A DNA stretch of 64,000 nt. It comes from a virus. Under the pieces are notes generated by a model. That model was not told the origin of the DNA. It was given only the letters and a program-made list of their open reading frames with translations, and did not search any database. The translations under genes and the position numbers were made by a program. The number at the start of each line of letters is the position of its first letter. Position 1 is the stretch's first letter. The stretch spans positions 1 to 64,000 of the IMG/VR virus record IMGVR_UViG_3300008113_000059, one strand, 5' to 3'. Positions 11,061 through 45,808 of the stretch are shown here, piece after piece.

Positions 11061-12011
11061 GTGATGAAAAAAATAATTTATATCACTCCCCATCTTTCCA
11101 CCGGAGGATTGCCTCAATATCTGTATAAAAAGATAGAGTCTTTCAATAAGGTGGCTGATGTTTATTGCGTGGAATACAGTTTTCATGGTGATGCATATGT
11201 TGTTCAGAGAAATAAAATAGCTGAACTTCTTGGAGATAGATTTATACCTTTATATGACAATAAGAACAAAATTATCGAATTATTGGAGGATATAAAACCT
11301 GATGTGATTCATTTCGAGGAGCTTCCTGAATCCTTCGTTAGTTCCGAATTATTAAATAGGATCTATAGCAATGATAGGAAATATTTTATATGTGAAACAT
11401 GCCACGGTTCAAATATACCAATAAGTGTTAAGCTATACAGACCTGATAAATTCATTATGGTTTCCGAGTGGATAGACAATAAGTTTAAACCACTGGGGGT
11501 ACCTTCCGATATACTGGAGTACCCTATTGAGGATCTAACACCTCTTAAGAAACATCATATGAATTTGCTTGGCTTATCGCCGGATTTCAAACATGTGGTA
11601 AATATTGGATTATTTACCTCCGGCAAGAATCAGAAAGAGGTTGTTGAGTACGCAAAGAAAACTGAGCATCTCCCAATAAGGTATCATTTCATTGGTAATA
11701 CCGCTGATAATTTTAAGGATTATTGGGAACCTATTCTGACTGATCTTCCTTCTAATTGCAGGATATGGGGTGAAAGAAATGATGTTGATTCATTCTATCA
11801 AGCTGCGGATCTTTTTCTATTTACCTCTATTTTTGAGCTAAATCCTCTGTCGATAAAGGAAGCTCTTTCTTGGAAGCTTCCTTGTATGTTTAGAAAACTT
11901 GATACTTACATGAGCACGTATGATGGATTTCCTAATGTTCATTATCTCAACGATGACAGGGAATCTAATATTTCGGAAATGCTAAAAATACTTGGTGTAG
12001 ATGGAAATTAA
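11061..12011 (+). CDS. Glycosyltransferase, GT-B fold (GT4-like)
   Basis: PHLSTGGLPQY, NIGLFTSGKNQ and FYQAADLFLFTSIFELNPLSIKEA (EX7E). Confidence 0.85.
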   Translation: MMKKIIYITPHLSTGGLPQYLYKKIESFNKVADVYCVEYSFHGDAYVVQRNKIAELLGDRFIPLYDNKNKIIELLEDIKPDVIHFEELPESFVSSELLNRIYSNDRKYFICETCHGSNIPISVKLYRPDKFIMVSEWIDNKFKPLGVPSDILEYPIEDLTPLKKHHMNLLGLSPDFKHVVNIGLFTSGKNQKEVVEYAKKTEHLPIRYHFIGNTADNFKDYWEPILTDLPSNCRIWGERNDVDSFYQAADLFLFTSIFELNPLSIKEALSWKLPCMFRKLDTYMSTYDGFPNVHYLNDDRESNISEMLKILGVDGN

Positions 12012-13191
12012 AGAGCAGTCAATTAGCATATACTCCGATCTGGTTAAATACGACGAGATCCACTTTGAAGAGAATCTAAAAATTAGAGCTCATTTATCGT
12101 TTGATTATAATCCTAAAATAGAAATATCCGGTCCCTCTGGGATACCGGGAATCCCCAATTCATTTAATACATTCATAAGAGACAGCGGAGATCTTCTATA
12201 CACATCAACCATACACACCGTAATGTTTTCATCAGGACTCCGACGGTGGGTTTTTGATTGCGACATGGAAGTCAGAGACGAATCAAATAATATAATCTCA
12301 TCATTTAACCTTTTTGATAAATTTAAAACTGGTAAAGTTTTGGTTTCTATTGACAGCTCAGCATTAGGTGATACATTAGCTTGGCTCCCATATATAGAAG
12401 AATTTAGAAAAAAATATGCTGTCAACAACCTTATTGTAACGACATTTTGGAATCAGTTATTTGAGGGTCGATATGCCGATATAAAATTCAAACATCCTGG
12501 ATACAGGGAGGAAGAAATTGATGCAATTATTGGTGTTGGTTGGTACGAGGAGACTGATGCTAATGTTCATAAAAATGATCCCCGTTCTATACCAATGCAG
12601 CAGGTTGCATCTGATATATTGGGTGTAGAGTATGCTGGTGAAATTAAACCTATAATTAACAAGACCCTACTAAGTAGACCTACTGATAAGAAATACGTTT
12701 GTATTGCAACAGAATCCACAGCGGGTGCAAAATATTGGCATTATCCTGGAGGATGGCAAAGATTGGTTGATTTACTTAAATCAGTGGGTTACGATGTGAT
12801 TGTTATTCACAAACAACCAACTGATCTAAAGGGAGTCATAGATAGAACGGGGGATCTTCCGATATCGGAAAGAATAAGTGATCTACTGCAATGTGAATTT
12901 TTCATTGGACTTGGATCTGGTATGTCTTGGTTATCGTGGTCCTTGGAAGTTCCAACGGTCATGATATCCGGATTCAGTCTACCCACAATGGAGTTTTTAG
13001 ATAAAACTCTAAGAATAATAAATAAGGATGTTTGTCATGGATGTTTCTCAAACACATCATATAAATTTGACAGAGGCGATTGGTGGTGGTGTCCTGTTCA
13101 TAAAGGAACAGATCGCTACTTCGAATGCACAAGAACAATAAAGCCGGAAGATGTCTTCATAAAGATATTAGACTGGATTCCCACTCTTTAA
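12001..13191 (+). CDS. Autotransporter O-heptosyltransferase (Aah/TibC, BAHT family; GT9-like)
   Basis: SSALGDTLAW, YVCIATESTAGAKYWHYPGGW, FFIGLGSGMSWLSW, PTVMISGFS and a four-Cys motif CHGC...WWWCP.HKGT.RYFEC, matching the iron-binding BAHT signature. Confidence 0.85.
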   Translation: MEIKEQSISIYSDLVKYDEIHFEENLKIRAHLSFDYNPKIEISGPSGIPGIPNSFNTFIRDSGDLLYTSTIHTVMFSSGLRRWVFDCDMEVRDESNNIISSFNLFDKFKTGKVLVSIDSSALGDTLAWLPYIEEFRKKYAVNNLIVTTFWNQLFEGRYADIKFKHPGYREEEIDAIIGVGWYEETDANVHKNDPRSIPMQQVASDILGVEYAGEIKPIINKTLLSRPTDKKYVCIATESTAGAKYWHYPGGWQRLVDLLKSVGYDVIVIHKQPTDLKGVIDRTGDLPISERISDLLQCEFFIGLGSGMSWLSWSLEVPTVMISGFSLPTMEFLDKTLRIINKDVCHGCFSNTSYKFDRGDWWWCPVHKGTDRYFECTRTIKPEDVFIKILDWIPTL

Positions 13192-13297
13192 AAATTAACT
13201 CTACCCGATTCAGTAACAACCTCCTCTGGATAGGTTATTCTTGTGCCTTGTTTATGAGATTCTGCTATACCTTTGAATTTCGCAATTTATTTATTTA

Positions 13298-13305
13298 GAT
13301 ATATA
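13298..13305 (+). promoter_or_regulatory. Putative late promoter GATATATA
   Basis: Recurrent octamer; lies 21 nt before ATG 13327. Confidence 0.7.
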
Positions 13306-13326
13306 ATCTCACTTAAAAAATATCAA

Positions 13327-13662
13327 ATGTCAGAAATAAGAGAATATTTTACATGGGAGGGAAACACGTTAATATTCGGTGACAGAGATGGATACAAATG
13401 GGAAACAACCTATAAAATAGTCCAGGACGCTGCATCAGCCGTTAATCTGGCCAGTGGATATGGATTACATCCACTGGAAAACATCGAGAGGAAACTTCCG
13501 GGGAAAGAATTTAAACAGTTTATAAGGATCGTTTGTGAAGTTAACGGAAAGATATATACAGAGACTAGACACAAAGAGATAGCTAGAAAAGTCACTGTTG
13601 GTGATATAGAGAAAACCTTTGATAAATATAGCATAAAAATCGAGGTAAAAGATAATAAATAA
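13327..13662 (+). CDS. Hypothetical late protein
   Basis: Start moved from TTG 13273 to ATG 13327, which lies downstream of the GATATATA motif in an A-rich context. Confidence 0.7.
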   Translation: MSEIREYFTWEGNTLIFGDRDGYKWETTYKIVQDAASAVNLASGYGLHPLENIERKLPGKEFKQFIRIVCEVNGKIYTETRHKEIARKVTVGDIEKTFDKYSIKIEVKDNK

Positions 13663-13665
13663 GAA

Positions 13666-14382
13666 ATGATAACAAGATATTCAGATTTCGTTTTCAAACC
13701 AAAGCAACCATTGGCACCTTCTAATGGACCCATTTTGGAAAAAAAAGAGGTTAAAAAAGATGATAAACTATTGAAAGAAAATTTAATCGATGATGTTATC
13801 TCATCAAAGATGAAATTACCTATCCCTGTTGACATCAAAACAAATTATGGGAATGAGGAAGAGGAGGAGTTTGACGACGAAGAATATTACGGGGAACCAG
13901 TAGAAAAAACAATAACGGACTTTATAGACCCAGCTTATATAAAATCTACACAGCCAACTTTTATTTCTGAACCCGAAGAAGTTGTATCCGAGCCTATAAT
14001 CACGGAGCCACAAATTCCTATGGATCCGCTTGCTTATAAAATATTCAGAGACAAAGCGGAATCTTTCGAATGCAAGGTTATGATAGAGGGAAGCGATGTT
14101 AAAAACACTGCGGTTAGACTTATACTAGAATCCGAAGAATGGAACATATTCTTTAAAGGTTCCATAAGCGGAGGAGTTTGTAGGATACCTCTTAAAAAAA
14201 TATCAATATTATCACCGGGACTTAAAGGTGTAATTAAATTAGAGGTTGTTGTAGATGGGGAGATTTTCTATCCTTGGTACGAAACATTCCAAGTGCAAAA
14301 CAATAAGAATGTAAAGGTGGAAATATTATCACAAAAGCAAAATAACCAGGCACAATCAGGCACTAGAGTTAGAATTGCTTAA
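13666..14382 (+). CDS. Hypothetical virion protein with acidic/Pro-rich linker and beta-rich C-terminal domain
   Basis: 238-aa ORF; N-terminus MITRYSDF resembles a capsid-targeting sequence. Confidence 0.7.
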   Translation: MITRYSDFVFKPKQPLAPSNGPILEKKEVKKDDKLLKENLIDDVISSKMKLPIPVDIKTNYGNEEEEEFDDEEYYGEPVEKTITDFIDPAYIKSTQPTFISEPEEVVSEPIITEPQIPMDPLAYKIFRDKAESFECKVMIEGSDVKNTAVRLILESEEWNIFFKGSISGGVCRIPLKKISILSPGLKGVIKLEVVVDGEIFYPWYETFQVQNNKNVKVEILSQKQNNQAQSGTRVRIA

Positions 14383-14401
14383 ACGCAAAAAAATTTAATA
14401 A

Positions 14402-15540
14402 GTGTCAAATCCGTTAAATCTTACAGGCCAATTTATAGCCGACACGTATGGTAGATTATTGCAGACACAAGACAATAATGTCTATGATGGGGAGGGCAAT
14501 TATTTATATACAATAGGTGGAACAGGGGGAGGATCAGAAATTCCTGGTCCTACTGGTCCTACTGGTCCTACCGGACCAAGCGGTGCTATAGGAGCTATTG
14601 GTGTAACTGGAAATACTGGAGCAACAGGATCACAAGGTCCAACAGGATCACAAGGTCCAACAGGATCACAAGGTCCAACAGGATCACAAGGTCCAACAGG
14701 ATCACAAGGTATAATGGAGCAACCGGAACTATTGGAGCTACTGGACCAACTGGAACTAATGGGGCTATAGGAGCTACAGGCCCAACTGGAGCTAATGGTA
14801 ATGATGGTATTAGTGTTTCATATTATAGATATAAAGCAGGAACAAGCTCTCAAACTCCTCCCCCTGCGACGAATCAAATTATATGGGATAATGCTACCCA
14901 AATAAGCTCTACCATACTATACATTTCCCATTTAACGACGGATAATATAGATATAGATGTTTTTCTAGGTTTAATTACAACGGAGGATAATTTAATCATC
15001 CAGGACCAGAACAATTCTAGTAACTACCAAAAATGGTTGGTGAGTTCATCACCCACAATTATACCTAATAATTATGTTTCTGTACCAGTTACTTATGTGG
15101 AAGGTGGTTATTCATTTTCTGCTGGACAGGATATAATTCTAGTACCCCTATCTATTGGGATACAAGGTCCAGCAGGACCCACAGGAAACAATGGTGCTAA
15201 TGGAGCAACTGGTCCAACGGGAAATAATGGAGCAACCGGACCCACGGGATCCTCTGGTGAATATTCAATAACAACCACAACAACCACTTATAATATAGTT
15301 GATACCAGTGGGACTTTTATCTTAAAATGCGATAGCACGGGGGGTGAATTTCAAGTCAATTTACCAACAGCAATAGGAAATACAGCAACAATAGTCGTTA
15401 AAAAAACTGCTGGTACAGCAGCTGTTACAGTTAATGGATTTTCAACAGAAACTATTGACGATGGGCTTACCGCAGTAATAAATAACATATATGAATCAAT
15501 TACATTAGTTTCCGATAATTCAAACTGGTGGGTAATATAA
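14402..15540 (+). CDS. Collagen-like (Gly-Pro-Thr) fibre protein, split by a frame break at about 14711
   Basis: Frame 2 GPT/GSQ repeats run to 14710; the Gly-X-Y reading resumes in frame 1 at 14713 ([13 protein letters not shown]...) and stays open to 15540. Confidence 0.8.
14622..14710 (+). repeat. Perfect 18-bp tandem repeat (caacaggatcacaaggtc), about 4.9 copies
   Basis: Seen directly; encodes TGSQGP and ends exactly at the frame break. Confidence 0.95.
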
Positions 15541-15554
15541 AATAAAGATTAAAA

Positions 15555-16001
15555 ATGGCATACAATCCTAATAATCCAAACGGACAAACAACTGCAGCAA
15601 ACTCAGCGCCAGTCGTTATTGCATCGGATCAGACTGCAGTTAATGCCTCCCTACAAGAGATTGCAACTGGAGGTGCATCAGTATTTCACCTTGTTTCTTT
15701 ATCAGGTACAAATCCTACAAATATAAAAAATGGACCTGGTAAGATAACCGGATGGTTCATTTATAATAACACAGGAGTTGTTAAAAAAGTTGCATTTCAT
15801 AATAATGCAGGTACACCAACAGCAGGAACAGGCGTTTATTTTTCAATCGTAATTCCTCCCCTATCAGCAGCTAATTGTTCCTTTCCCGCAGGAATAAATT
15901 TTTCAACTGGTATTGCAATAACTACAACAAGTGGTTTAGCAGATTCCGATACATCTATCGTTAATGCATCGGATCTTAGTATAAATATATTCTTTAAATA
16001 A
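15555..16001 (+). CDS. Hypothetical structural protein
   Basis: 148 aa, small-residue beta-rich sequence within the fibre operon. Confidence 0.7.
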   Translation: MAYNPNNPNGQTTAANSAPVVIASDQTAVNASLQEIATGGASVFHLVSLSGTNPTNIKNGPGKITGWFIYNNTGVVKKVAFHNNAGTPTAGTGVYFSIVIPPLSAANCSFPAGINFSTGIAITTTSGLADSDTSIVNASDLSINIFFK

Positions 16002-16002
16002 T

Positions 16003-16341
16003 ATGGCAAACATTCAATCAACAAACAAATTTACGTATCCATTGCAATGGAACATCGAAAAACTCAATGTAACGGTTAATACATTTCCTCTTTTCCCTGA
16101 AACTGTTGAAGTATTCTGGGAATTAATAGGTGGTGATTTTTCAAAAGAAGGTACTCTGATTATTCCTCAAGAAATAGTCTCTCAATGGGGAACTAACGAT
16201 TCGATATTGGAGGATTATGTTATCGAACAATTAAACTTAACTCGATCAATAACTGAAGAAACTCTACCAACCGAAGAAACTACACCGACGGAAGAAACTC
16301 CACCGACAGAAGAAACTCCACCGACAGAACCTATAGTATAG
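16003..16341 (+). CDS. Hypothetical protein with C-terminal TEETPP repeats
   Basis: Four 18-bp/6-aa repeats at about 16252-16329. Confidence 0.75.
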   Translation: MANIQSTNKFTYPLQWNIEKLNVTVNTFPLFPETVEVFWELIGGDFSKEGTLIIPQEIVSQWGTNDSILEDYVIEQLNLTRSITEETLPTEETTPTEETPPTEETPPTEPIV

Positions 16342-16342
16342 G

Positions 16343-19003
16343 ATGGCAATAAAGTATTGGTACGTAGCAAATAATGGTAGTGCCTCTTGGTCAACCGGTG
16401 GTAATTGGTACGATACTTCTGGAGGTCCACCAAATGGAGGCGTTGTTGTAGGTGCACCTACAGTAGATGATGATGCTATTTTAGATAGTAATTCTGGTAC
16501 TGGTACGATAACTATTACGTCGAATGCTTCGACTTGTCTTTCTCTTGATGCTAGTTCTTTTAGCGGGACTTTTGCCGGTACTGCTACTATTACAATCATA
16601 TATAGCTTATACCTCGGACCCAGTATGACTTTATCTCATACTGGTAGAATGGCTTTTGGAAGTGCAGCTTACGGACCTACTTATTCAGGTGTCCTAGATT
16701 TTTCTACTCAAACCGTTGTAGGTACTATAGTCTTTCAAAGTCCTGGATCTTATTGGGATGTCTATGATTTAAAAACCGTTTCTACATCTTCAGTTACTTT
16801 AAGTGGTGGAGAAATATCTACATACAATTCTAATAAACCATATGCATTAGAATGTGGTTTATTCATATCAACTGGGAGTGGGTCAAGAGCCTTCTGGGGT
16901 GGGTCAAGTGGTATAGATTGGAACATTACTGGATTTGGTACGGTTTGGAATGTTAGTGGAACAAATATCACTGCTGGGGATTATTATAATAACTATCCTA
17001 CCGGATACCTTAATATCACAAATTCATCCTCCAATACAAAAACCATTACGCATTCATTAACTGGATTTAATACTCCTTTCCAAACAACCCTAGGTGGAAC
17101 TGGTAATGGATCCTTTGTTATATCATCTAGTGCAGGGTTGAACGATTTTTATGTTACCAATACTGGAGGAGCTCAATTAACTTTTAATTCTTGTACTATA
17201 TACGGTAACTATTTCAGTTTTGGTAATTCTAATGTTAATTGGAATAGTACGAGTTCTGTTATAACATTCGTAAACACCGGTGATCTTGAATTCATCTTAA
17301 GTCCTAATAGTACTATTACCTTTTCAGGAGATATTGTAATGAATATGGCTGCCAATTCTTACATATATTACACGTCGAACGGTAAGTCTCTAACCGGAAC
17401 TTTTACTCTTAATAATGGAAGTACTCTATATGCTTATGATAGCTTTTCTTGTAATGGTACTTTTACGTTAAACTCGGGAATTGTAGAATATACTGGAGCG
17501 CCTATATCCATTGGTGCTTTATCATCAAGCAATTCTAATACTCGTACATTTTCTACTCCGACTTTATATTTAACGGGTACTGGTACTCTTATATCAGCAT
17601 CAGTTACAACCGGATTAACGTTTGCCGTTGACGATATTTATCTAACAAGCACGAGTTCATTATCAAAAACTGCATCTTTTTCAGGTATAATTTGTGCAAT
17701 AAACTCGGTAAATTTGGAAGGATCCGGAAGTAGTTTAACGTCGATGACATTCGCTGCTTCTTCGGTTACTACTCCTTATGTATACATACGAAAATTAGGA
17801 GGAACTTTAAACATAGGTACGAGTACGATGAGATCTTTAGTTTTTGTTGAGGGATCTACTATAACCTGGGCAAATGGTAGTAATGTACACACCATACTAG
17901 AAGATCTTATTTTATGTTCTTCTATGACGGTATCTACTTCGTCAAGTACCATATCATTTCCTTTAGCTAACGAGTATAGTTCCACTTTTGTTACTGCAAA
18001 TAAAACTTTTAGTGGAACTTTGAGTGTGTTAAACCCGAATGGATTGTTTGTTAATGGAAATTATACCTCAACTTCTACGAGTACTAGTGCAATAAGTGTA
18101 GCAACTCAAGGTTCGGTAACTTTCAGCGGTAACGTACAAGTTAGTAGCGGTAGTTTTGTTTCCAATAGTGGAACTTCTGGAGGTGGAGCTCAGGGTTTAT
18201 TTGCAAATGTAGATTTTAGAGGATCTCTAACCGCTAATGCCGTTTCATTTACCGATACATATGTTCAGTTACGAAACGCCACAGTAAATGGAGCTATGAG
18301 TTTTAGTACATATGGTTCAATGTATGTTTATCCAAATTCTACACTCAATCTAGGGTCATTTGCATCATCTACAGCCTCTGCCGTTAGAGATATAACATTA
18401 AACAATGCAATCATAAACCTTAATGGTATTGGAACAGTTTGGAATACCAGTTCCGGAGGAGCAAATTTAACTCTTAGTGCCGCTAGTTCTACCATAAACA
18501 TAACTAATAAAACATCCAATACAGTGACTGTATTATTAGGTAATGCATATGCTTATGGAAACTTTAATATTGATCGATCACAGCCTTATTCTGCCGGATT
18601 TGCTGTATCTACCATTGTTGGTGGGATTGGTGATTCATTTGCAAATTTTATAGATACCACGAAAATGACTCCTCCAGGAGCATTACATGATATAGTATTT
18701 TCCGGATCATCTTCTGCTACATACACTCAGATCCGAGAAACATTTAAAGTAGGTAATCCTGACAATCTTACGAGGATATATTCGAGTTCAGCCAATCCAT
18801 TTTATCTGCAAAAAACCGCATCAGTTTCTAATGGATTGGTAATTTGCTCAAATGTTTATGTTCAATTATCTAGAGTTCTTCCTACTAATACTTGGTATGC
18901 CATAGGTTCTACCACCAACACGACATCAAGTGATGGAGGATCTAATGTTAATTGGATATTCGGAGTTCCTTCGAGAAGATTAGGATCTCAAGGAGTAGGG
19001 TAA
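16343..19003 (+). CDS. Ser/Thr/Gly/Asn-rich beta-helix-like adhesin or fibre (autotransporter-passenger-like)
   Basis: 886 aa with very few charged residues and alternating beta-strand repeats (GTFTLNNG, GTFTLNSG, TLNLGS); N-terminal YW...W....NW...P..DD motif. Confidence 0.7.
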   Translation: MAIKYWYVANNGSASWSTGGNWYDTSGGPPNGGVVVGAPTVDDDAILDSNSGTGTITITSNASTCLSLDASSFSGTFAGTATITIIYSLYLGPSMTLSHTGRMAFGSAAYGPTYSGVLDFSTQTVVGTIVFQSPGSYWDVYDLKTVSTSSVTLSGGEISTYNSNKPYALECGLFISTGSGSRAFWGGSSGIDWNITGFGTVWNVSGTNITAGDYYNNYPTGYLNITNSSSNTKTITHSLTGFNTPFQTTLGGTGNGSFVISSSAGLNDFYVTNTGGAQLTFNSCTIYGNYFSFGNSNVNWNSTSSVITFVNTGDLEFILSPNSTITFSGDIVMNMAANSYIYYTSNGKSLTGTFTLNNGSTLYAYDSFSCNGTFTLNSGIVEYTGAPISIGALSSSNSNTRTFSTPTLYLTGTGTLISASVTTGLTFAVDDIYLTSTSSLSKTASFSGIICAINSVNLEGSGSSLTSMTFAASSVTTPYVYIRKLGGTLNIGTSTMRSLVFVEGSTITWANGSNVHTILEDLILCSSMTVSTSSSTISFPLANEYSSTFVTANKTFSGTLSVLNPNGLFVNGNYTSTSTSTSAISVATQGSVTFSGNVQVSSGSFVSNSGTSGGGAQGLFANVDFRGSLTANAVSFTDTYVQLRNATVNGAMSFSTYGSMYVYPNSTLNLGSFASSTASAVRDITLNNAIINLNGIGTVWNTSSGGANLTLSAASSTINITNKTSNTVTVLLGNAYAYGNFNIDRSQPYSAGFAVSTIVGGIGDSFANFIDTTKMTPPGALHDIVFSGSSSATYTQIRETFKVGNPDNLTRIYSSSANPFYLQKTASVSNGLVICSNVYVQLSRVLPTNTWYAIGSTTNTTSSDGGSNVNWIFGVPSRRLGSQGVG

Positions 19004-19173
19004 AAATATAAAAAGTTAAAATATACAAAAATAATTAAAAAGACATCCGTATAATAAACAGCAAATTGATTAAACAATTTAATCATAATCATTGCGCATA
19101 ATTCCATTTACATGCGCCGGGTCATGTTATCAACCACAGACATTTCTTTGTCAATCATCCAAATTTAATCTCG

Positions 19174-19200: not shown

Positions 19201-21690
19201 ATGAATTTTTATCCGGAGAATAGATTTCCTAAGAAGGGCGAACCTGTCAATGACGGGAATGGCCAACAGTATGATTTATCAGAGCAGAGATATAATTACC
19301 ACGATGGTCTTCAGAACACCGATAAGGTAGTTAAATCATCGGTGGATAACATATTTTCAACACCCGGTGCAGCCGAGGCAAGAGCTAAACAAATCGGATG
19401 TGGTGGGTATCACGAGGTTATAATTAAGGGTGAAAAATACTATAAGCCCTGTGTAAGCTCAGGTTACTATGATCTGAGAATAGAACAGCTAGATAGCGCA
19501 TTAAACTTTACTTATATTGGAAATTATAGGGTTCTCTCGTGGGATAAACCATTTGAGAGAGTTACTAAATTTAAGGGTTGGATAATAGATGCCTCAAATA
19601 GCAATAATACTGGATCGAGATTAGACGCTAATGACATCTCCATTGATTTTAGATACAGCATAGATGGAAAGACATGGTCTTTATGGACTAATGTTGGTAC
19701 CGCTCTCGGCGGACTAACAAATGAATTTTCTGATCTTTTTGATATAATTTTAAATCCTGACAATAAATTCTACCCGGAATTTAGATTCACCTCAGTACTA
19801 ATTAATGAGGATGGAACTGTTATTTATAATAGTGATGAACCAATAGATCCAACAATTGTTATAGTTAGTTTCGAGTTGGATTTGGATTATGCACCAACTC
19901 CAGAAATTCCCATAGTTAAACCTGCTGCTATATGCTCCAATGAGGTTTCAAATAGACCTGTTGTTTTTTCTGATTGTAAATTCACATTTAATCCATATGC
20001 AGTAAACCGTGCGCTGAATCTATATCAGGATTTAAGTTTGATGGTTAATAATGTATTTGGCTTGGAAGCAAATTACTATTCTGTTCAACCACAAGCTAGA
20101 GGTAAGGATGTAGTTTTAAAGGAATACACTATATTTAATGTTGTTGACGAGAAATGTGTTAAGATACTCGTTCCGCAGAATCAGTTCCCTGATAATAAAA
20201 TAAACTTTGATCCTTTCGGGCTTCAGTTCGAGGAGCCTTTTGAGATACAAATAGACAAGAGATATTTTGAGACTATATTCGGAAGGGGATCTCAGCCTAG
20301 AAAAAGAGATATTTTATATTTCCCTATTACTAATAGAATATATGAAATAAATTCTATGTATTTATTCAGGGACTTTATGAACGCTCCTGTTTATTTTAAA
20401 ATAGAGCTTAGAAAATATAGTCCGAAAAGTAATACCTATTTTCAAGATCCTGCATACAAGGAGGAACTTGATGGTATAACATTGACTACAAGCGAATTAT
20501 TTGGAGCTGAAGTTAATGATGAGGAAATTAAAAGTTCTAAGCCTCAGCAATATGCAACCACAATAACACAGCTTTCGCAGGACCCTATTAGATCATACGT
20601 TTATAAGGATCTATCTATAATCGGATATGATCTAAATAATAACTGGACAATAGTTCTTAATAACTATTATGATTTATCAGAGGCATTTGCTGATAATTCT
20701 GAATTTGGATACGACCCTGATCGATATAGAAATGCAATTAGATACAAGAGGCTTCCTAAACTTGGTACCACCGATGAATTATCATACACTTGTTGGTTTA
20801 GTCTTAGAAATTTCTATGACAATCAGCAAATGTTAAAAAGAGCTTATCCGATATCGAATATAAACCTTGATTCATTCGATGCTGATTATTTATATTTCAG
20901 CAGCTACCCTAGGAGACATAGATTGGAAAAATGGCAATCATATGCTTCCAATCCTGAAGGATATGTTGCCATAAAGGGTGATAAATTACACTCTGGAGGA
21001 TATCAGGTTGTTGATGTTATTGATGAATATAGATTTACCGTTAAGAATAACAGCATGGATTTTGCACTCGGAACGATAGTTTGGAAAATGCAAAAAGCTC
21101 AGAGCAGGAATTTATTTAGCGGCCTTTATGAGAATGCGTCGGAAAACATAGAAGGATTTAGAGTTGATCTTGTGCACTCTGGTGTTATGGACGAGAATTC
21201 AAATCCTTTCTTAGGAGAGGGAAGTTTAGTAATAAGACTAAATGACAGAGTAATAAATTCACCGCTTCAATTCGTTCCTGAGTATGGTAGCTGGTATGGT
21301 GTTGTTGTAAACGTTTCTAATCTATATAAACAGATCGCTGCTAATATATGGGAAATGTCATATGACCCAGTCAATCCAAATGAACAGTCTAGTAAGCTAA
21401 ATAAGGTCCATGAGGAGGTTAGAATGATAACTAATCCGATAATATTCAATGCTCCGTCGGATGTCGTTACGGACACGCTAAGCCCATTTTATGGCACTGA
21501 TAACAACTCATATAAGATCTTCACTGGACCAATTTACCTTGGTAACGTGAGATTATTTAAAAATATGATAGATATAGATACACAATCAACGGTATTAAAC
21601 CAAAACATAGTAAGAGATGAACAACTTGCACACATTATAGACAATTCTAAACCACTATTGAATATTCCTAAGTTTGCAAGAAATAGATAA
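19201..21690 (+). CDS. Enlarged neck/head-closure protein (T4 gp14-like core)
   Basis: Central FGLQFEEPFEIQIDKRYFE...PRKRDILYFP...IYEIN resembles gp14; position upstream of terminase and sheath fits. Confidence 0.6.
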   Translation: MNFYPENRFPKKGEPVNDGNGQQYDLSEQRYNYHDGLQNTDKVVKSSVDNIFSTPGAAEARAKQIGCGGYHEVIIKGEKYYKPCVSSGYYDLRIEQLDSALNFTYIGNYRVLSWDKPFERVTKFKGWIIDASNSNNTGSRLDANDISIDFRYSIDGKTWSLWTNVGTALGGLTNEFSDLFDIILNPDNKFYPEFRFTSVLINEDGTVIYNSDEPIDPTIVIVSFELDLDYAPTPEIPIVKPAAICSNEVSNRPVVFSDCKFTFNPYAVNRALNLYQDLSLMVNNVFGLEANYYSVQPQARGKDVVLKEYTIFNVVDEKCVKILVPQNQFPDNKINFDPFGLQFEEPFEIQIDKRYFETIFGRGSQPRKRDILYFPITNRIYEINSMYLFRDFMNAPVYFKIELRKYSPKSNTYFQDPAYKEELDGITLTTSELFGAEVNDEEIKSSKPQQYATTITQLSQDPIRSYVYKDLSIIGYDLNNNWTIVLNNYYDLSEAFADNSEFGYDPDRYRNAIRYKRLPKLGTTDELSYTCWFSLRNFYDNQQMLKRAYPISNINLDSFDADYLYFSSYPRRHRLEKWQSYASNPEGYVAIKGDKLHSGGYQVVDVIDEYRFTVKNNSMDFALGTIVWKMQKAQSRNLFSGLYENASENIEGFRVDLVHSGVMDENSNPFLGEGSLVIRLNDRVINSPLQFVPEYGSWYGVVVNVSNLYKQIAANIWEMSYDPVNPNEQSSKLNKVHEEVRMITNPIIFNAPSDVVTDTLSPFYGTDNNSYKIFTGPIYLGNVRLFKNMIDIDTQSTVLNQNIVRDEQLAHIIDNSKPLLNIPKFARNR

Positions 21691-40002: not shown

Positions 40003-40035
40003 AAAGAATGTAGCTAATTGCTACATTCTTTTTTT
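40003..40035 (+). terminator. Rho-independent terminator
   Basis: AAAGAATGTAGC-TAATT-GCTACATTCTTTTTTT. Confidence 0.88.
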
Positions 40036-40037
40036 AT

Positions 40038-40064
40038 GAAATCTTTCCCCTATTTTTAACTAAG
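40038..40064 (+). promoter_or_regulatory. Putative middle promoter GAAAT-N17-CTAAG driving the late sigma
   Basis: Variant of the recurrent motif, between a terminator and ATG 40092. Confidence 0.55.
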
Positions 40065-40091
40065 ATTATAAACCAAACTAATTAAACTTTA

Positions 40092-40451
40092 ATGGCAAAA
40101 GAATATGTTAAAAACAGCGAATTATTAGCCGCTGTTATAGAATCCAAGAATAACGGTAAGCTTACTCCTGCTACTATCGGTATGTTTAATTTGATGATAT
40201 CTGGTATTGCTAAAAAAATGTCATATAAGGATCCTGAGGATAGAGAAGATTGCATGGCTTTTGCTATGGAAGATCTATGTAAATATTGGAATAGATTCAA
40301 TCCGGAGAAATCAAACAATCCTTTTGCTTATTTTACACAAATAGCTAAAAATGGATTTGCTAAGGGGTGGAAAAAATTACATCCACCAAAGAATCCCAAG
40401 ACAATACCATTTAGCTACATTACAGGAGACGATAATTCATACAACATCTAA
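40092..40451 (+). CDS. gp55: Late-transcription sigma factor (T4 gp55-like), minimal
   Basis: YVKNSELL...REDCMAFAMEDLCKYWNRFNPEKSNNPFAYFTQIAKN matches the gp55 signature. Confidence 0.88.
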   Translation: MAKEYVKNSELLAAVIESKNNGKLTPATIGMFNLMISGIAKKMSYKDPEDREDCMAFAMEDLCKYWNRFNPEKSNNPFAYFTQIAKNGFAKGWKKLHPPKNPKTIPFSYITGDDNSYNI

Positions 40452-40460
40452 TTAGGAGCT

Positions 40461-40946
40461 ATGACCGATATTAAAAAGGTAAAGCCTAATGGTGAATATC
40501 GATCTGGAAAATATGATCCTAAGAATCCCGAAAAGTATATTGGTGATATTCATAACATCATCTATAGATCTTCATGGGAGTATAGATTCTGTATGTATTG
40601 CGATACTAATGATGCTATACTTAAATGGAGTTCAGAGCCTGTTGCTATAGACTACTATAACCCACTTGATAAAAAAGAACATAAGTATAATGTTGATTTC
40701 TATATAAATGTTCTTAAGGAGGATCAACAAACACAGGACTGGATAATCGAGATAAAGCCAGAGAATCAAACAAAAAAACCTCTCTACGAGGGAACAATGA
40801 CAGTAGCAAAACTGAAGTCTTATAATAGAAATATGCAAATATGGATAACGAATCAGGCTAAATTTAAAGCTGCTAGGGATTGGGCTGAGAAAAGAGACTA
40901 TAGATTTGGTGTTATTGGTGAGGATTTCCTATTTAAAAGCAAGTAA
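40461..40946 (+). CDS. gp4: Head completion nuclease (T4 gp4-like, TnsA-like fold)
   Basis: PKNPEKYIGD..NIIYRSSWE, WSSE, YNVDF, IEIKP, NQAKFKAA. Confidence 0.92.
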   Translation: MTDIKKVKPNGEYRSGKYDPKNPEKYIGDIHNIIYRSSWEYRFCMYCDTNDAILKWSSEPVAIDYYNPLDKKEHKYNVDFYINVLKEDQQTQDWIIEIKPENQTKKPLYEGTMTVAKLKSYNRNMQIWITNQAKFKAARDWAEKRDYRFGVIGEDFLFKSK

Positions 40947-41548
40947 TGTATAACGATTTAGTATTAGAATACAAGAATGATCCCAAGAACACTGGAAATA
41001 TTTATAATATAACCAATGATTTTTTTCTTGGTAAGTATTTTAAAAACGACAATCCCGATAAAAAATTCCAACCACCATTCGTTCCCGGAGAGATATATTC
41101 CTTCAATTATCAGACAGACAGCAAAATAACCAAGAAAAGACCATTCATAGATAGAATGCCTTTGGTTGTTTGCACCGATGTATTTGAAACGAAAGAAACC
41201 GGACTTATATTGAAGGGTATAGATATAATAACAGTCCCGCCTAGAACAAGAGTTGATATCCTCGGTAGGATATATGACAATTTTACTGAGCAGATAAAGA
41301 GTAATGATGCTTCATATACCGGAGGTGGTTCAAGAACACCCATAAATTTAAAGGATAATGTTTTAAGCAATCTTCTTAGGAATACCGGATATGCTGAATC
41401 ATTGTTTGGTTTTAAGACAGGATTCGCAAGGAATGTAAAAATAATAGACTCCCTGGACTGGCCTAAAGTGCCATATCTGGCGGTAAATTTTATAGAGGGC
41501 TTGAATGTGCAGGAGATATATAAACAATATCAATCGAAATTAATTTAA
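40946..41548 (+). CDS. gp2: DNA end protector (T4 gp2-like)
   Basis: PGEIYSFNY...PFIDRMPLV...GIDI..VPPRTR resembles gp2; adjacent to gp4. Confidence 0.6.
   Translation: MYNDLVLEYKNDPKNTGNIYNITNDFFLGKYFKNDNPDKKFQPPFVPGEIYSFNYQTDSKITKKRPFIDRMPLVVCTDVFETKETGLILKGIDIITVPPRTRVDILGRIYDNFTEQIKSNDASYTGGGSRTPINLKDNVLSNLLRNTGYAESLFGFKTGFARNVKIIDSLDWPKVPYLAVNFIEGLNVQEIYKQYQSKLI
41515..41522 (+). promoter_or_regulatory. Putative late promoter GATATATA for the portal operon
   Basis: Within the 3' end of the gp2-like gene, 60 nt before ATG 41583. Confidence 0.6.
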
Positions 41549-41582
41549 AAATATCGATAGAATGAATAAATCAATTTATTAA

Positions 41583-43196
41583 ATGGCTGGTTTTGTAGAA
41601 AATAATAACACATCACAGACTCCTGTAATACAGAGGATCAGAGATTCCGTAAGGAAACTTAGTACCTTTGGTATGAAGTATGATGACATGGTTATCCGTA
41701 ATTCACAAGCAGTTGGTGTTACAGAGGCAGCTTTCTTAAATAAGAATAAATCTAATGTCGAGGACGAGAGCATGCTATGGACTCTTGCCAAGCAGGATAT
41801 ATCATCCCGACAATTTATAGGATATTTTGATAAGGACTACAAGGGGAAAAGAGATTTTCTTAGAAAGTTTTCGCTTAATCCCGAGATAGAGTGGGTTTTA
41901 GATACCGTTTGTGATGAGGCTATTTCTTATGATCCATCAAACTTTTTTGCTTATCCAGATTTTATAGATCTTAGTGATATTAACGATAAGCTTAAAGAGG
42001 ATTTGTATGACACCTATAAGACATTATACGACACATGGGGATTTTCTGATGATATTACTGCATGGCAATATTTTAGACAATTTATAATAGATGGATTTTT
42101 AGCATTCGAGATAATCTACGACGATAAGGGACAGAATATAATAGGATTCAAAGAGCTTGATGCTATTACACTTATTCCTAGCGTCGAGAAACAGATAGAC
42201 GGTAGCTTCATGAGTACATGGACACAATACCCTCAAGATCCTAAAAAGAAAAGAGTACTTTACGAACCTCAGATCATTTACATCTCCTATGCTAAGGGTA
42301 ATTCAATTTCAAGGATAAGTTACATTGAGAGATTAATAAGGCCGTATAACATCCTTAGAATAATGGAATACACCAGAGTTATCTGGTCTGTTATGAATGC
42401 TTCATTTAAACTTAAGATGACAGTTCCTATCGGATCTAAATCTCAACAAAAAGGTATGCAGACTCTAGGTGAGTTAATGAGTATCTACAAGGAGGACATT
42501 GAGCTTAATGATGAAAGCGGTGAATTAACAATAGACGGAAGACCTAAGATTCAGTTTTATAAGAATTATTTAATGCCATCGGGTGTAAATGGAACACCTA
42601 CTATAGAACCAATAACAACCGATGGACCTAACCTAAATGATCCGCAGCCACTAGCTTATTTCTTTGATAAATTTATACTGGAATCTAAAGTTCCTCCATC
42701 AAGATTTCATAATCCTGATGGAGGTAGCACATCTCCATATTCGAATGGTGCTGAAGGATTGGATAAGGAGGAAATAAGATTCTCCAAATTTATATCTAGA
42801 TTAAGATCAGTTTTCCAGGAGATAATGATTAAACCGCTTTGGATACAGATGGCAAAGAAATATCCCAAATTGGAAGACGACTTTATGTTTAAGAGCCAAT
42901 TGGGGCTAGATTATTTTTCTGATAACCCATTCAAACTTAACCAGGAAATGGATATGATGAATAAGAGGAAAGAAGGTATAGCAGCGATGGGTGGATTAGT
43001 CGGTGACGAAGAAAAACCATATTTTTCTAATGCTTTCCTTATCGAGACATTTCTTGGTATGTCTAAACAGGATATAGATGCTAATAAAGAAGCTATCGAA
43101 AGAAAGGAAAAGGAGAAGAAGAAAAAGGAGGAAGAAAAAGGCAAAGAAGGCGGAGAGAAAAAAGAGGGTGAAGAAGCACCCGAAGTAACACTATAA
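41583..43196 (+). CDS. gp20: Portal vertex protein, copy 1
   Basis: PEIEWVLDTVCDEAI, FRQFIIDG, SYIERLIRPYNILRIME, VPPSRF, EEIRFSKFISRLRSVF. Confidence 0.92.
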   Translation: MAGFVENNNTSQTPVIQRIRDSVRKLSTFGMKYDDMVIRNSQAVGVTEAAFLNKNKSNVEDESMLWTLAKQDISSRQFIGYFDKDYKGKRDFLRKFSLNPEIEWVLDTVCDEAISYDPSNFFAYPDFIDLSDINDKLKEDLYDTYKTLYDTWGFSDDITAWQYFRQFIIDGFLAFEIIYDDKGQNIIGFKELDAITLIPSVEKQIDGSFMSTWTQYPQDPKKKRVLYEPQIIYISYAKGNSISRISYIERLIRPYNILRIMEYTRVIWSVMNASFKLKMTVPIGSKSQQKGMQTLGELMSIYKEDIELNDESGELTIDGRPKIQFYKNYLMPSGVNGTPTIEPITTDGPNLNDPQPLAYFFDKFILESKVPPSRFHNPDGGSTSPYSNGAEGLDKEEIRFSKFISRLRSVFQEIMIKPLWIQMAKKYPKLEDDFMFKSQLGLDYFSDNPFKLNQEMDMMNKRKEGIAAMGGLVGDEEKPYFSNAFLIETFLGMSKQDIDANKEAIERKEKEKKKKEEEKGKEGGEKKEGEEAPEVTL

Positions 43197-43200
43197 TAAG

Positions 43201-44808
43201 ATGGCAGGATTTTTAGATTTTTTAAAACCGAATCAATCTGCACTGGGTAACATATTAAAAAACCTAGGCAACATATCAAAATTTGGTATGCAGTATGATG
43301 ATATGGTTGTGCGAAACTCACAAGCCATTGGTAAGACTGAGGGATTTTTCTATAATCAGGATGGGAACGGATTTACTGAGAATGATGCATTTTATTGGAC
43401 AGCTTCATATCAGGACACAAAGGTAAGAAAATACATTGCTTATTTCGATAGGGATTATATTGATAAAAGAAACTATCTGAGAAAGTTTTCACTAAACGGT
43501 GAGATTGAATTTATACTTGATACCATTACTGATGAGGCAATTACTTACGATGATAGAAACTACTTTGCTCAGCCTTCATTTATAAATATAGATCTTAAAG
43601 ATAAGATCAAGGATAAGATGGCTTCCCATTATAATAGGCTTTATAATGTTTTTGGATTTCAGAATACTGTATTAGCCTGGCAATACTTCAGACAATTTCT
43701 GATAGATGGATTTCTTGCATTTGAATTAATATATGATAATAAGGGTAAAGAAATTATAGGATTTAAAGAATTGGATCCGGGATCGCTTCAGCCAGTTGTT
43801 GAAAAGGTTGGTGAAAATGAACACAGACAGTTTTGGATACAATATCCGAAGAATCCACAAATGACAAGAAAGCTTACTAATGAACAGGTTATCTACATAT
43901 CATATGCCAAGGGAAATAGTATATCTAGAGTAAGCTATATAGAAAGACTTGTTAGATCATATAATATATTAAGAATAATGGAGAATTCCAGGGTGATCTG
44001 GAACGTTATGAATGCTTCATATAGATTGAAATTCATCATACCCATTGGGACTCAGTCTCCACAAAAGGCAATGCAGACTCTTGGACAACTAATGTCAAAT
44101 TATAAGGAGGATATTAATATTAATGATAACTCTGGTGAATTAACAGTAAATGGTAGGCCGAAGGTTCAATTTTACAAGAATTATCTATTCCCTGAAAAGG
44201 ATGGTGTATCTCCAGAAATATCTTCACTTAATTCGAGCGGTCCTGATTTCAATGTGATGGAGAATGTTTTATATTTCTTCAATAAATTAAAAATGGATTC
44301 AAAGATACCGTACGCTAGATTTGCATCAAAAAGTGGAACTCCTGCAACATATCAGATAAGTATAGATCAGCTAGAAAGAGACGAGATCAGGTTTGAAAAG
44401 TTTCTAAGAAGATTAAGATCAATATTTCAGGAGATCCTTGTAAAACCACTTTACATTCAGATGTGTTTAGACAATCCCGAGCTATCAAGAGACAAGAGTT
44501 TTAAAGCCAATATTGGACTTAATTATCACAGGGATAGCGAATTTGAAGAAATGGTTGAGATGTCAGGATATGCTAAAAGGAGCGAATTTATTAAAGGTCT
44601 AGAGGAACTAAAGGTAAAAGTTGGTGAGGAAGACAAAGCTTACTTCGATCCTGATTTCCTAGTTCAGAGATTTCTTGGGCTTAATCCCGACCAGATTAAG
44701 ATGAACGAGAAATATAAGGAGAAAGAAGCTAAGGCAGCTGCGCCAGCTGAGGGAGAAGCTGCTGCACCAGCAGAAGGCGAAGAAAAAGCTCCTGAAGTAA
44801 CACTATAA
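43201..44808 (+). CDS. gp20: Portal vertex protein, copy 2
   Basis: GEIEFILDTITDEAI, FRQFLIDG, SYIERLVRSYNILRIME, IPYARF, DEIRFEKFLRRLRSIF. Confidence 0.92.
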   Translation: MAGFLDFLKPNQSALGNILKNLGNISKFGMQYDDMVVRNSQAIGKTEGFFYNQDGNGFTENDAFYWTASYQDTKVRKYIAYFDRDYIDKRNYLRKFSLNGEIEFILDTITDEAITYDDRNYFAQPSFINIDLKDKIKDKMASHYNRLYNVFGFQNTVLAWQYFRQFLIDGFLAFELIYDNKGKEIIGFKELDPGSLQPVVEKVGENEHRQFWIQYPKNPQMTRKLTNEQVIYISYAKGNSISRVSYIERLVRSYNILRIMENSRVIWNVMNASYRLKFIIPIGTQSPQKAMQTLGQLMSNYKEDININDNSGELTVNGRPKVQFYKNYLFPEKDGVSPEISSLNSSGPDFNVMENVLYFFNKLKMDSKIPYARFASKSGTPATYQISIDQLERDEIRFEKFLRRLRSIFQEILVKPLYIQMCLDNPELSRDKSFKANIGLNYHRDSEFEEMVEMSGYAKRSEFIKGLEELKVKVGEEDKAYFDPDFLVQRFLGLNPDQIKMNEKYKEKEAKAAAPAEGEAAAPAEGEEKAPEVTL

Positions 44809-44836
44809 TTATAAATCTTTTAAATTCCAGAATCGA

Positions 44837-45808
44837 ATGGGATTAAATATACAGCAAGAATTTTTAAAACCAAGAATATTAGTAATAGGTGACGTAATGC
44901 TGGATCATTATGTCATTGGATCCGTTTCCAGAATTTCACCAGAGGCTCCTGTTCCTGTATTACTAAAGGAATCTGAGCATTATTACCTTGGTGGAGCGGG
45001 AAATGTATTTTCGAATGTACATACCCTTGGAGGACGGAGTGATATACTATCAGTTATAGGTGATGATGATTCGGGTGATATTGTAATTGATATGGTCAAT
45101 TCAAAATCAAATTTAAGCAGCCTCCTAAAATCAGCATCCAGAAAAACAACATGCAAATCTAGATATATTGGCAATTCACATCAGCTTCTTAGGGTTGATG
45201 ATGAAACATGTGACAATATAGATATTGTTACTGCCAATTCCTTTATTGAAAAATTTGGATCCGTTATTGATCTATATGATTGTGTGGTAATCGAGGATTA
45301 TAACAAAGGATTGCTAACCCCTGATGTAATAAAACAATCAATATTGATAGCAAAATCCAGAAACAAGATAGTTATAGTCGATCCTAAGATCAAGAACATC
45401 GAGCATTATTCAGGATCAACATACCTCAAACCCAATTTTTCGGAGTTCTGTTCACTGGTGGATGAAAAATTGGACATATTAAATATCAATCATATAGTCA
45501 GCAAAGCAAGAGAAGTATTAATTGACATGTCAATTGAAGGAATACTGATAACACTATCCGATAAAGGTATTCTCTACGTTGATTCCGCTACACATCACCA
45601 CAGTCCAGGTTATCCGATTAATGTTTCTGATGTATCAGGAGCCGGTGATACGGTAACTGCAATGTTTGCACTCGCAACATGCTCTGGTATAGGTATAGAA
45701 AATACATTAGCTCTTTGTAATATAGCTGGATCTATAGCTTGCTCACAAATAGGAGCTGTATCTGTTAATATTTCAGATGTCATAAAAAATCAATATTTTA
45801 AATTCTAA
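44837..45808 (+). CDS. hldA: D-glycero-D-manno-heptose-7-phosphate kinase (RfaE/HldE domain I, PfkB family)
   Basis: ILVIGDVMLDHY..GSVSRISPEAPVPV, LGGAGNV, QLLRVD, DYNKG, VDPK, KPN and DVSGAGDTV. Confidence 0.92.
   Translation: MGLNIQQEFLKPRILVIGDVMLDHYVIGSVSRISPEAPVPVLLKESEHYYLGGAGNVFSNVHTLGGRSDILSVIGDDDSGDIVIDMVNSKSNLSSLLKSASRKTTCKSRYIGNSHQLLRVDDETCDNIDIVTANSFIEKFGSVIDLYDCVVIEDYNKGLLTPDVIKQSILIAKSRNKIVIVDPKIKNIEHYSGSTYLKPNFSEFCSLVDEKLDILNINHIVSKAREVLIDMSIEGILITLSDKGILYVDSATHHHSPGYPINVSDVSGAGDTVTAMFALATCSGIGIENTLALCNIAGSIACSQIGAVSVNISDVIKNQYFKF

Follow-up and report, generated by a model that had tools for sequence, protein, structure and literature searches.

A TibC/Aah-family glycosyltransferase beside collagen-like tail-fibre genes of an uncultured jumbo phage: a predicted fibre O-heptosylation cassette

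The stretch of viral DNA analyzed here (the window, 64,000 nucleotides) is the first 64 kb of the 91,832-bp IMG/VR record IMGVR_UViG_3300008113_000059, for which CheckV gives a completeness of 32%. It encodes a predicted protein O-glycosylation system made up of a bacterial autotransporter heptosyltransferase (BAHT) of the TibC/Aah type, an overlapping glycosyltransferase of family 4 (GT4), a heptose kinase and a Ser/Thr-rich collagen-like tail fibre. Every long open reading frame (ORF) of the window lies on the + strand, and the G+C content is about 35%. According to PHROGs matches, the window also encodes a terminase, a 1115-amino acid (aa) tail sheath, two tandem portal paralogues, a neck-like protein and collagen-like fibres. 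The nearest deposited phages by terminase are the huge phages LR756500-504, then PAU, Lak phages and Tenacibaculum phages (33-38% identity). From position 10758 on, this record (G000) is colinear with a 270,629-bp relative that is 99% complete (G005), and the phage belongs to an uncultured jumbo-phage lineage of about 270-350 kb. The features at the center of the analysis are:

1..4504, + strand: large tail-fibre gene, open at the 5' end of the record, with PHROG tail-fibre and collagen-like matches
4..174, + strand: Gly-X-Y run 1 of the large fibre, 19 triplets, 37 Ser/Thr, 0 Pro, frame 1
496..702, + strand: Gly-X-Y run 2, 23 triplets, 43 Ser/Thr, 0 Pro, frame 1, with a frame change at its 3' end
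1082..1387, + strand: Gly-X-Y run 3, 34 triplets, 59 Ser/Thr, 0 Pro, frame 2
2501..2833, + strand: Gly-X-Y run 4, 37 triplets, 65 Ser/Thr, 1 Pro
3206..3574, + strand: Gly-X-Y run 5, 41 triplets, 61 Ser/Thr, 0 Pro
11061..12011, + strand: GT4-family glycosyltransferase (PF00534 and phrog_2170), its 3' end overlapping the BAHT gene by 11 nt
12001..13191, + strand: BAHT (TibC/Aah-like) predicted protein O-heptosyltransferase of 396 aa (TIGR04414), clade B, with a shortened thumb
41515..41522, + strand: GATATATA late-promoter-like motif ahead of portal 1, the nearest such motif upstream of the kinase
44837..45808, + strand: HldA-type predicted heptose-7-phosphate kinase of the PfkB family (TIGR02198, rfaE_dom_I), starting 28 nt after portal 2

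The ORF at 12001..13191 is a full-length member of the TibC/Aah family. It matches TIGR04414 (hepto_Aah_TibC) at 257.3 bits (cut-off 200) over model positions 12-370 of 374, aligns with TibC (4RAP) at E 8e-53 and is about 31-37% identical to TibC/Aah. Residue roles were taken from the TibC structure paper (PMC4358343; PDB 4RAP/4RB4). The catalytic base Asp110 of TibC corresponds to D124 in the phage protein, the beta-phosphate ligands Thr226 and Lys230 to T240 and K244, the adenine (N1) contact Arg286 to R291 and the heptose O4 contact Trp305 to W310. The iron-finger cysteines Cys339/342/358/370 correspond to C345/C348/C364/C376 and are invariant, with iron binding predicted from sequence only. 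In 39 environmental homologs, the catalytic and ADP-heptose contact residues are invariant or at least 90% conserved. One further TibC position, Pro300, which determines heptose stereoselectivity, is replaced by Gly in the phage enzyme.

An AlphaFold2 (AF2) model of the phage BAHT (pLDDT 90.8) comprises an N-terminal beta-barrel and a GT-B-like catalytic domain. It superimposes on TibC 4RAP with a TM score of 0.82-0.85 (383 columns, rmsd 2.8), versus 0.38-0.56 for the lipopolysaccharide (LPS) heptosyltransferases WaaC/WaaF. The original prediction, made from the nucleotide sequence, of an Aah/TibC-type transferase with a four-Cys site is thus confirmed, and the enzyme groups with TibC rather than with WaaC/WaaF. 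Heptose transfer from ADP-heptose to protein Ser is its predicted activity.

The phage enzyme departs from TibC in its beta-hairpin thumb, which is shortened by 9 residues to a 14-residue segment, versus 23 in Aah and all clade-A members; the AF2 model shows no strand between residues 269 and 287. In TibC, the thumb tip (Phe265/Val266) joins dimers into a dodecamer (PMC4358343). Since the phage BAHT lacks this thumb, a TibC-type dodecamer is not expected and another mode of assembly and substrate binding is. The phage enzyme probably forms no dodecamer ring and holds its substrate differently.

The overlap between the transferase and a GT4 gene was also borne out: it measures 11 nt, and the upstream protein matches PF00534 (Glycos_transf_1) at 34.3 bits (gathering score 26.4) over residues 173-276. 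Elsewhere the two enzymes are joined. In L204, GT4, BAHT and an FkbM methyltransferase form a single 959-aa protein with a GT9-like gene beside it, and GT4-BAHT fusions occur as ORFs of 676-821 aa (L513, L518, L521, L523) and as larger ORFs of 1454-1527 aa (L516, L517). These fusions in other phages indicate that both enzymes act in one pathway, in which the GT4 probably adds a further sugar onto the BAHT product.

BAHT enzymes have so far been known from just a few proteobacteria, where they modify autotransporter adhesins and are associated with virulence. Full-text literature searches turned up no report of a phage BAHT, nor of a heptosyltransferase that modifies collagen-like repeats. At least 573 IMG/VR contig stretches encode a BAHT relative, as do 4 of 50,697 deposited phage records, and the best match among species-representative bacterial genomes is 45% identical (a Saprospirales metagenome-assembled genome (MAG) contig). 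A FastTree tree of 138 sequences, a quick method applied to best-scoring hits rather than a random sample, splits into clades A and B with a support of 99. Clade A is bacterial only and holds Burkholderia and its relatives, Negativicutes, Alphaproteobacteria and the E. coli Aah beside AIDA-I. Every viral sequence falls into clade B, as do Gammaproteobacteria MAGs and a few contigs of Bacteroidota MAGs that nest among the viral branches. A sister clade of the BAHT enzymes is therefore common in uncultured phages, though PHROGs has no matching family.

The large fibre at 1..4504 alternates Pro-free (Gly-Ser/Thr-Ser/Thr)n runs (GSS runs) with globular modules of about 100 aa and ends in a C-terminal chaperone-like tail. 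Ser and Thr make up 33% of the protein, and its five uninterrupted, putatively triple-helical Gly-X-Y runs of 19-41 triplets amount to 154 triplets, in which 265 residues are Ser/Thr and one is Pro. Toward its C terminus, the fibre shares 81% identity with the relatives L006/L007. Each of the two collagen-like fibre genes of the window carries a single frame change within or at the edge of its repeats, near 693-700 in the large fibre and near 14708-14715 in a second, Gly-Pro-Thr (GPT) fibre. The Ser/Thr- or GPT-rich fibres that had been proposed at 1..4504 and 14402..15540 are thus present, but not as single open frames. The frame changes could be an assembly error in the repeats, a real mutation or phase variation.

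BAHT genes are adjoined by large fibres of this kind in clearly different phage lineages. We compared 30 IMG/VR records picked solely by a match to (GGNWSNWSN)x8 with 28 control records picked by an arbitrary AT-rich 16-mer. A BAHT was present in 15 of the 30 repeat-selected records (14 above the TIGR04414 cut-off) and in 6 of the 9 that were at least 90% complete, versus none of the 28 controls and none of the 11 complete ones among them (Fisher p = 6e-6; in this and the following association statistics many records are fragments, and records within a lineage are not independent). A GSS-repeat ORF lay within 10 kb of the BAHT in 9 of the 15 positive records, often adjacent to it, and a tenth had a general Gly-X-Y ORF there; the genomes in this proximity test span 66 kb to 548 kb. 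In a set of 18 phage genomes, 13 were BAHT-positive and came partly from other lineages, and 9 of these had GSS x6 runs; the 5 BAHT-negative ones, all of this lineage, had none. Ser/Thr-rich ORFs make up 8.3% of the BAHT neighbors within four genes on either side versus 2.6% of all ORFs of G005.

The association extends to bacteria and follows the tree. Runs of (G-S/T-S/T)x4 occur in the flanks of 1/48 clade-A loci, 18/31 bacterial clade-B loci and 28/58 viral clade-B loci (46/89 for clade B); for the bacterial loci of the two clades, compared at equal flank size, p = 1e-8. In five bacterial clade-B loci the BAHT gene stands amid housekeeping genes, beside genes for proteins of 130-290 aa with a signal or lipoprotein leader, a (GSS)n body and an acidic poly-Asp/Glu tail. 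These loci, on MAGs or chromosomes (L021, L023, L026, L058, L079), come from Acidiferrobacterales, Arenicellales, unclassified Gammaproteobacteria (L026), Methylococcales and Methylomicrobium. On this sequence evidence, a clade-B BAHT and a small secreted GSS-repeat protein look like an undescribed bacterial enzyme-substrate pair. In the phage, the GSS runs of the large fibre are most likely the acceptor, being the best-supported candidate.

In a cultured phage, the Microcystis phage Mel-JY01 (L527, PP395634.1), a 1226-aa protein (4750..8430) annotated as 'methyltransferase FkbM' ends in a BAHT domain. The phage has 17 (G-S/T-S/T)x4-coding runs, every one of them on the strand of the BAHT gene and no more than 10 kb upstream or downstream of it. 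Within 1..9900, GSS-coding runs are found at 95..2103 and 9446..9670 on the + strand, where the deposited annotation has hypothetical genes on the - strand; the fibre genes of Mel-JY01 were probably mis-called there.

As had been predicted, the ORF at 44837..45808 encodes a heptose-7-phosphate kinase-like protein and starts 28 nt after portal 2 with no terminator-like site on the + strand between them. TIGR02198 is its nearest family, and it aligns over its full length (residues 7-314, E 8.6e-49) with the Burkholderia HldA 4E84, a D-beta-D-heptose 7-phosphate kinase, with the PfkB GAGD motif (DVSGAGDT) aligned and kept. The gene stands alone between portal 2 and a DNA ligase gene, and this position is syntenic in relatives. 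Co-occurrence of kinase and transferase, which the original prediction implied, held in 5/5 close relatives and failed in several complete BAHT-positive genomes. Within the lineage, a strong kinase match is present in 18 BAHT-positive records (this one included) and missing from 8; among BAHT-negative records, 9 lack it and the one that has it is a 24%-complete fragment. For complete or near-complete genomes, G005, G006 and G047-49 have both genes, G007, G036 and G037 the BAHT only, and G038 and G039 neither. Outside the lineage, BAHT phages have at most a weak, divergent PfkB gene of about 250 aa. We rejected the kinase as a general BAHT partner because it is missing from several complete BAHT-positive genomes. 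Its nesting within BAHT-positive genomes supports heptose as the sugar in this lineage, the kinase not being required.

Searches for gmhA, gmhB and hldC found none in the 91.8-kb record, which widens the earlier statement that GmhA, GmhB and the adenylyltransferase are absent from the window; the record ends before the positions where relatives carry gmhA and hldC-like genes. Of the full ADP-heptose pathway (GmhA, HldA, GmhB, HldC) this record thus encodes the kinase alone. A search of related genomes recovered gmhA and an HldC-like gene and no gmhB. GmhA is present in G004, G005 and G006 (NF001628; the G005 copy scores 234 bits versus a cut-off of 265), and G005 encodes a 147-aa cytidylyltransferase with rfaE_dom_II as its best match. 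A weak HAD-IIIA match in G005, the sole HAD candidate for GmhB, turned out to be of the RNA-repair type HAD_SAK_2. The HldC-like gene of G005 (L015:1477-1920, L526:1498-1989) lies about 1.7 kb upstream of the HAD_SAK_2 gene, and one of the intervening ORFs encodes an AAA ATPase.

The motif GATATATA occurs 13 times on the + strand of the window and never on the - strand, with 7.6 copies expected on both strands together. The copies are at 13298, 13551, 19174, 24348, 35061, 37427, 41515, 50297, 53086, 53861, 56733, 57392 and 60505, most of them 20-70 nt before the start of a structural gene, and the motif is likely a late-promoter element. A scan for sigma-70 promoters found sites no commoner than in shuffled sequence. 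There is no + strand terminator-like site between 43201 and 44837, from the portals to the kinase, and transcription from the motif at 41515 could take in both portal genes and the kinase. The idea of a boost to donor supply late in infection is therefore plausible for the kinase, by read-through from 41515, and finds no late motif ahead of the GT4-BAHT pair. Both portal paralogues, at 41583..43196 (537 aa) and 43201..44808 (535 aa), match phrog_213, and their G005 copies are 92% and 89% identical. Since both are kept in this complete relative, the duplication is old and maintained.

The genes around the GT4-BAHT pair, including an insertion downstream of it, are:

5542..10688, + strand: possible tailoring-gene block between the large fibre and the GT pair (Pfam/NCBIfam)
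8936..9967, + strand: radical SAM/SPASM-twitch enzyme in this block (Pfam/NCBIfam)
9981..10688, + strand: 2OG-Fe(II) oxygenase in this block (PF13759/PF13640)
10758..11030, + strand: p90, a 90-aa coiled-coil-like protein, backbone gene
13273..19003, + strand: phage-specific insertion of 5.7 kb with six ORFs, between the BAHT and neck genes
14402..15540, + strand: GPT collagen-like fibre (Pfam Collagen 26.9 bits versus a cut-off of 27.2)
16343..19003, + strand: 886-aa Ser/Thr-rich right-handed parallel beta-helix, tailspike-like (AF2, VIA-align)
19201..21690, + strand: neck-like protein of 829 aa, encoded directly after BAHT in relatives, the downstream boundary of the cassette

The gene order of the lineage is fibre genes, p90, GT4, BAHT, neck-like protein, a 260-aa protein, terminase and sheath, and in at least 35 related loci the cassette lies between the fibre genes and the neck/terminase/sheath genes. 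Other lineage members have p90 immediately ahead of the neck gene, with no GT pair in this flank. Because p90 adjoins the neck gene where the cassette is missing, it marks the point of insertion, and the presence or absence of the GT pair at this fixed site makes the cassette accessory. For the same reason p90 was rejected as a glycosylation-specific partner. Two complete genomes bounded by direct terminal repeats (DTR), G038 and G039, have no BAHT anywhere, and two others, G036 and G037, have it as a fusion at another locus. In the relative G047 (L204:4779-9924), the interval from p90 to the neck gene holds a GT9-like protein of 310 aa, an unassigned one of 309 aa, the 959-aa GT4-BAHT-FkbM fusion and a DUF6165 protein. 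GT4, BAHT and kinase are 60-64% identical between this record and G005, versus 80-92% for the flanking structural proteins and 83-92% for the neck, terminase, sheath, portal and ligase proteins near them; this fits a shared, faster-evolving function, and other genes diverge equally. No nucleotide-level match to the GT region was found among deposited phages. A group of aquatic jumbo phages named 'moraphages', which have four core groups of glycosyltransferases and for which Bacteroidota hosts are predicted, has been described (PMC12619734).

The block at 5542..10688 also holds four unassigned ORFs, one of them a DUF6734 protein. It is common only to L005-L007 and missing from the complete relative G005. 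Its genes are possible glycosylation tailoring genes, with a putative link to the system. PHROGs has no family for BAHT, p90 or the ORFs at 4506..8921, and gave no match for the block at 5542..10688.

The insertion at 13273..19003 holds, in order, two small ORFs, the GPT fibre, two more small ORFs and the 886-aa protein. No homolog of it was found in the 84 BAHT loci or in the lineage loci checked; in the closest relatives the neck gene follows BAHT directly, and the 886-aa protein is in 0/80 neck-gene loci. This protein (Ser+Thr 30%) has no Pfam, NCBIfam or PHROGs match and no significant Foldseek match in the PDB. Its AF2 model (pLDDT 83) is a beta-helix that VIA-align places nearest to the phage tailspike CBA120 TSP3 (Z 14.5). 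A profile of its family found nothing in 36 of 37 related genomes and just weak terminal matches in the remaining one. The family has about 66 unannotated metagenome homologs of about 900 aa. Since the insertion is absent from related loci, the GPT fibre and the 886-aa protein cannot be conserved acceptors, and they are possible extra acceptors in this phage only. The 886-aa protein was originally described as a Ser/Thr-rich, passenger-like acceptor; the composition and the beta-helix stand and the conserved role does not.

We think it reasonably probable that the GT4-BAHT pair is a cytoplasmic fibre O-glycosylation cassette that would place heptose on the GSS runs of the phage's own tail fibre, with the GT4 extending it. 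In the mechanism we propose, BAHT would act in the cytoplasm on the GSS fibre while this is being synthesized or assembled, O-heptosylating its Ser/Thr with ADP-D,D-heptose as donor, and GT4 would extend the glycan with a further sugar. The HldA-type kinase, together with the GmhA and HldC-like genes of near-complete relatives, would top up ADP-heptose during infection, a GmhB-type phosphatase coming from the host or from an unrecognized phage gene. The glycan may stabilize, solubilize or shield the proline-free collagen-like helix. That the phage heptosylates its own fibres was already part of the original prediction; the comparative association now backs the GSS fibre as the putative target and not the GPT fibre or the 886-aa protein as conserved ones.

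Several results weigh against this proposal. The transferase itself lacks the thumb, while the TibC thumb mutants F265D and V266D are dimers and inactive on TibA, and the only characterized acceptors of the family are Ser residues on the folded beta-helices of TibA and AIDA-I, not collagen-like triplets (PMC4358343). A search of all six frames of the 91.8-kb record gave no match to the strand-loop-strand target repeat of autotransporters, TIGR04415, at E <= 10. The fibre association has gaps, as 4 of the 13 BAHT-positive genomes have no GSS x6 run and 15 of the 30 GSS-selected records, many of them fragments, have no BAHT. The association could also come in part from residence in a shared fibre module, an explanation against which the bacterial BAHT/GSS-protein pairs speak. 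On the donor side, the kinase scores 307.2 bits against TIGR02198, under the equivalog cut-off of 345 (the next family, ribokinase, is at 62 bits), and the complete genomes G007, G036, G037, G022 and G028 lack it despite having a BAHT. The rfaE_dom_II match of the G005 cytidylyltransferase is weak (56 bits versus a cut-off of 181), and TIGR01656 (GmhB) has no match in G004/G005. No GATATATA copy lies in 1..13297, hence none upstream of the GT4-BAHT pair within the window.

The acceptor could instead be a beta-helix as in TibA, either the 886-aa protein or other beta-helical virion proteins, the GSS repeats being mere neighbors in the fibre module. The 886-aa protein, encoded 3 kb downstream of BAHT, does align with glycosylated TibA55-350 (Z 10.1, 264/274 residues) and is rich in Ser/Thr, and the only proven BAHT acceptors are beta-helices (PMC4358343). 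We nevertheless find this unlikely: its fold is that of a generic tailspike without the TIGR04415 repeat, it sits in an insertion missing from related loci, and its family is absent from nearly all related genomes, complete BAHT-positive ones included. Moreover, the thumb needed for TibA hyperglycosylation is missing from the phage enzyme, and the bacterial clade-B enzymes are paired with small GSS proteins, not with beta-helices.

A similarly improbable alternative is that the cassette and the heptose genes are directed at the host and alter envelope glycans or surface proteins, blocking superinfection or the adsorption of progeny. Sugar gene clusters of jumbo phages and cyanophages are usually interpreted along these lines. 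Clusters of PfkB kinase, nucleotidyltransferase and glycosyltransferase genes in jumbo phages have been read in this way (Iyer et al. 2021; PMC7824862, section 3.4.10), genes for a kinase, a nucleotidyltransferase and an isomerase bear LPS annotations in cyanophages such as P-SSM2, and the GT pair has no late-promoter-like motif upstream. The enzyme, however, has the protein-binding N-terminal barrel and iron finger of TibC and is far from LPS heptosyltransferases; its gene accompanies GSS fibre genes in unrelated phages, often as their direct neighbor, and lies within a block of virion genes.

We give no better prospects to a sugar other than heptose on the fibre, with the kinase serving another purpose. 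The Gly in place of TibC Pro300, the sub-cut-off score of the kinase, the lack of heptose pathway genes in most BAHT-positive phages and the missing GmhB would all suit such a sugar, but the equivalents of Arg286, Trp305, Thr226, Lys230 and Asp110 are all kept, and GmhA, an HldA-like kinase and an HldC-like gene do occur in BAHT-positive genomes of this lineage. DNA hypermodification, for instance heptose on 5-hydroxymethylcytosine (5hmC) with the 2OG-Fe(II) oxygenase making the hydroxylated base, is very improbable: heptose transfer to 5hmC has been described for phage GT-B enzymes (bioRxiv 10.1101/2023.12.21.572611), an oxygenase and a radical SAM gene lie upstream and the kinase adjoins a DNA ligase, but those DNA glycosyltransferases resemble T4 beta-GT, BshA and MshA, whereas the similarity of BAHT to TibC extends from end to end and takes in the modules that bind protein, and the oxygenase matches PF13759/PF13640 with no TET/JBP family reported and is absent from G005, which retains the GT pair.

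Heptosylation of the phage's own GSS fibre therefore remains our preferred reading. A broader proposal, which we hold tentatively and judge slightly more likely to fail than to stand, is that clade-B BAHTs are an unrecognized class of O-glycosyltransferases for Pro-free (Gly-Ser/Thr-Ser/Thr)n repeats, acting on tail fibres of unrelated phages and on small secreted gammaproteobacterial GSS proteins. Dense heptose, extended by GT4 and sometimes methylated by FkbM, would replace hydroxyproline, and in this lineage the phage would carry donor genes (GmhA, HldA and HldC-like). If true, this would define a new kind of virion glycoprotein, explain the stability of proline-free collagen-like fibres and mean that some sugar-nucleotide 'auxiliary metabolic genes' of phages serve something other than the modification of host LPS. 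New from this window are the heptose-pathway genes and their nesting in BAHT-positive genomes, a cassette that is present in some genomes and missing in others at one fixed site, the mapping of the thumb deletion on the tree and the finding that the beta-helical 'passenger-like' protein is not a conserved partner.

Compared with known systems, the donor genes recall the ADP-heptose pathway (HldA/HldE domain I, GmhA, HldC), the kinase resembling HldA over its full length and GmhA being present in relatives; they differ in that no GmhB or HldD was found in the phage genomes examined. T4-like cyanophages (P-SSM2, S-CAM1) also have kinase, nucleotidyltransferase and isomerase genes. Their heptose kinases are 25-28% identical to the present one, which lies outside any sugar cluster, and their heptose genes are read as LPS-related, unlike in our proposal.

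The capsid of chloroviruses is glycosylated in the cytoplasm by virus-encoded glycosyltransferases. In mycobacteriophages, virion glycosylation in which virus-encoded glycosyltransferases decorate the phage's own structural proteins in the cytoplasm was reportedly described by Freeman et al. in 2023 (cited in PMC12619734). These systems use other glycosyltransferase families and other sugars than the present one and have different acceptors, such as Ser/Thr at the C termini of capsid and tail-tube proteins; they are not known to involve a BAHT enzyme or a collagen-like acceptor. The GPT repeats of Bacillus anthracis BclA and the mimivirus collagen are Thr/Ser-rich Gly-X-Y surface filaments with O-linked sugars. 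These carry rhamnose/anthrose, or glucose on hydroxylysine, added by unrelated enzymes.

The TibC-TibA and Aah-AIDA-I systems of E. coli differ from the phage cassette in several respects: the phage BAHT falls in a separate deep clade with a thumb of 14 rather than 23 residues, is phage-encoded among structural genes with no adjacent autotransporter or TIGR04415 repeat, and has a GT4 partner and a Pro-free collagen-like fibre. They share with it the fold, with its N-terminal barrel, GT-B-like domain and four-Cys iron finger, the catalytic Asp, the ADP-heptose contacts and the placement of a cytoplasmic enzyme gene beside a gene for a Ser-rich repetitive extracellular protein.

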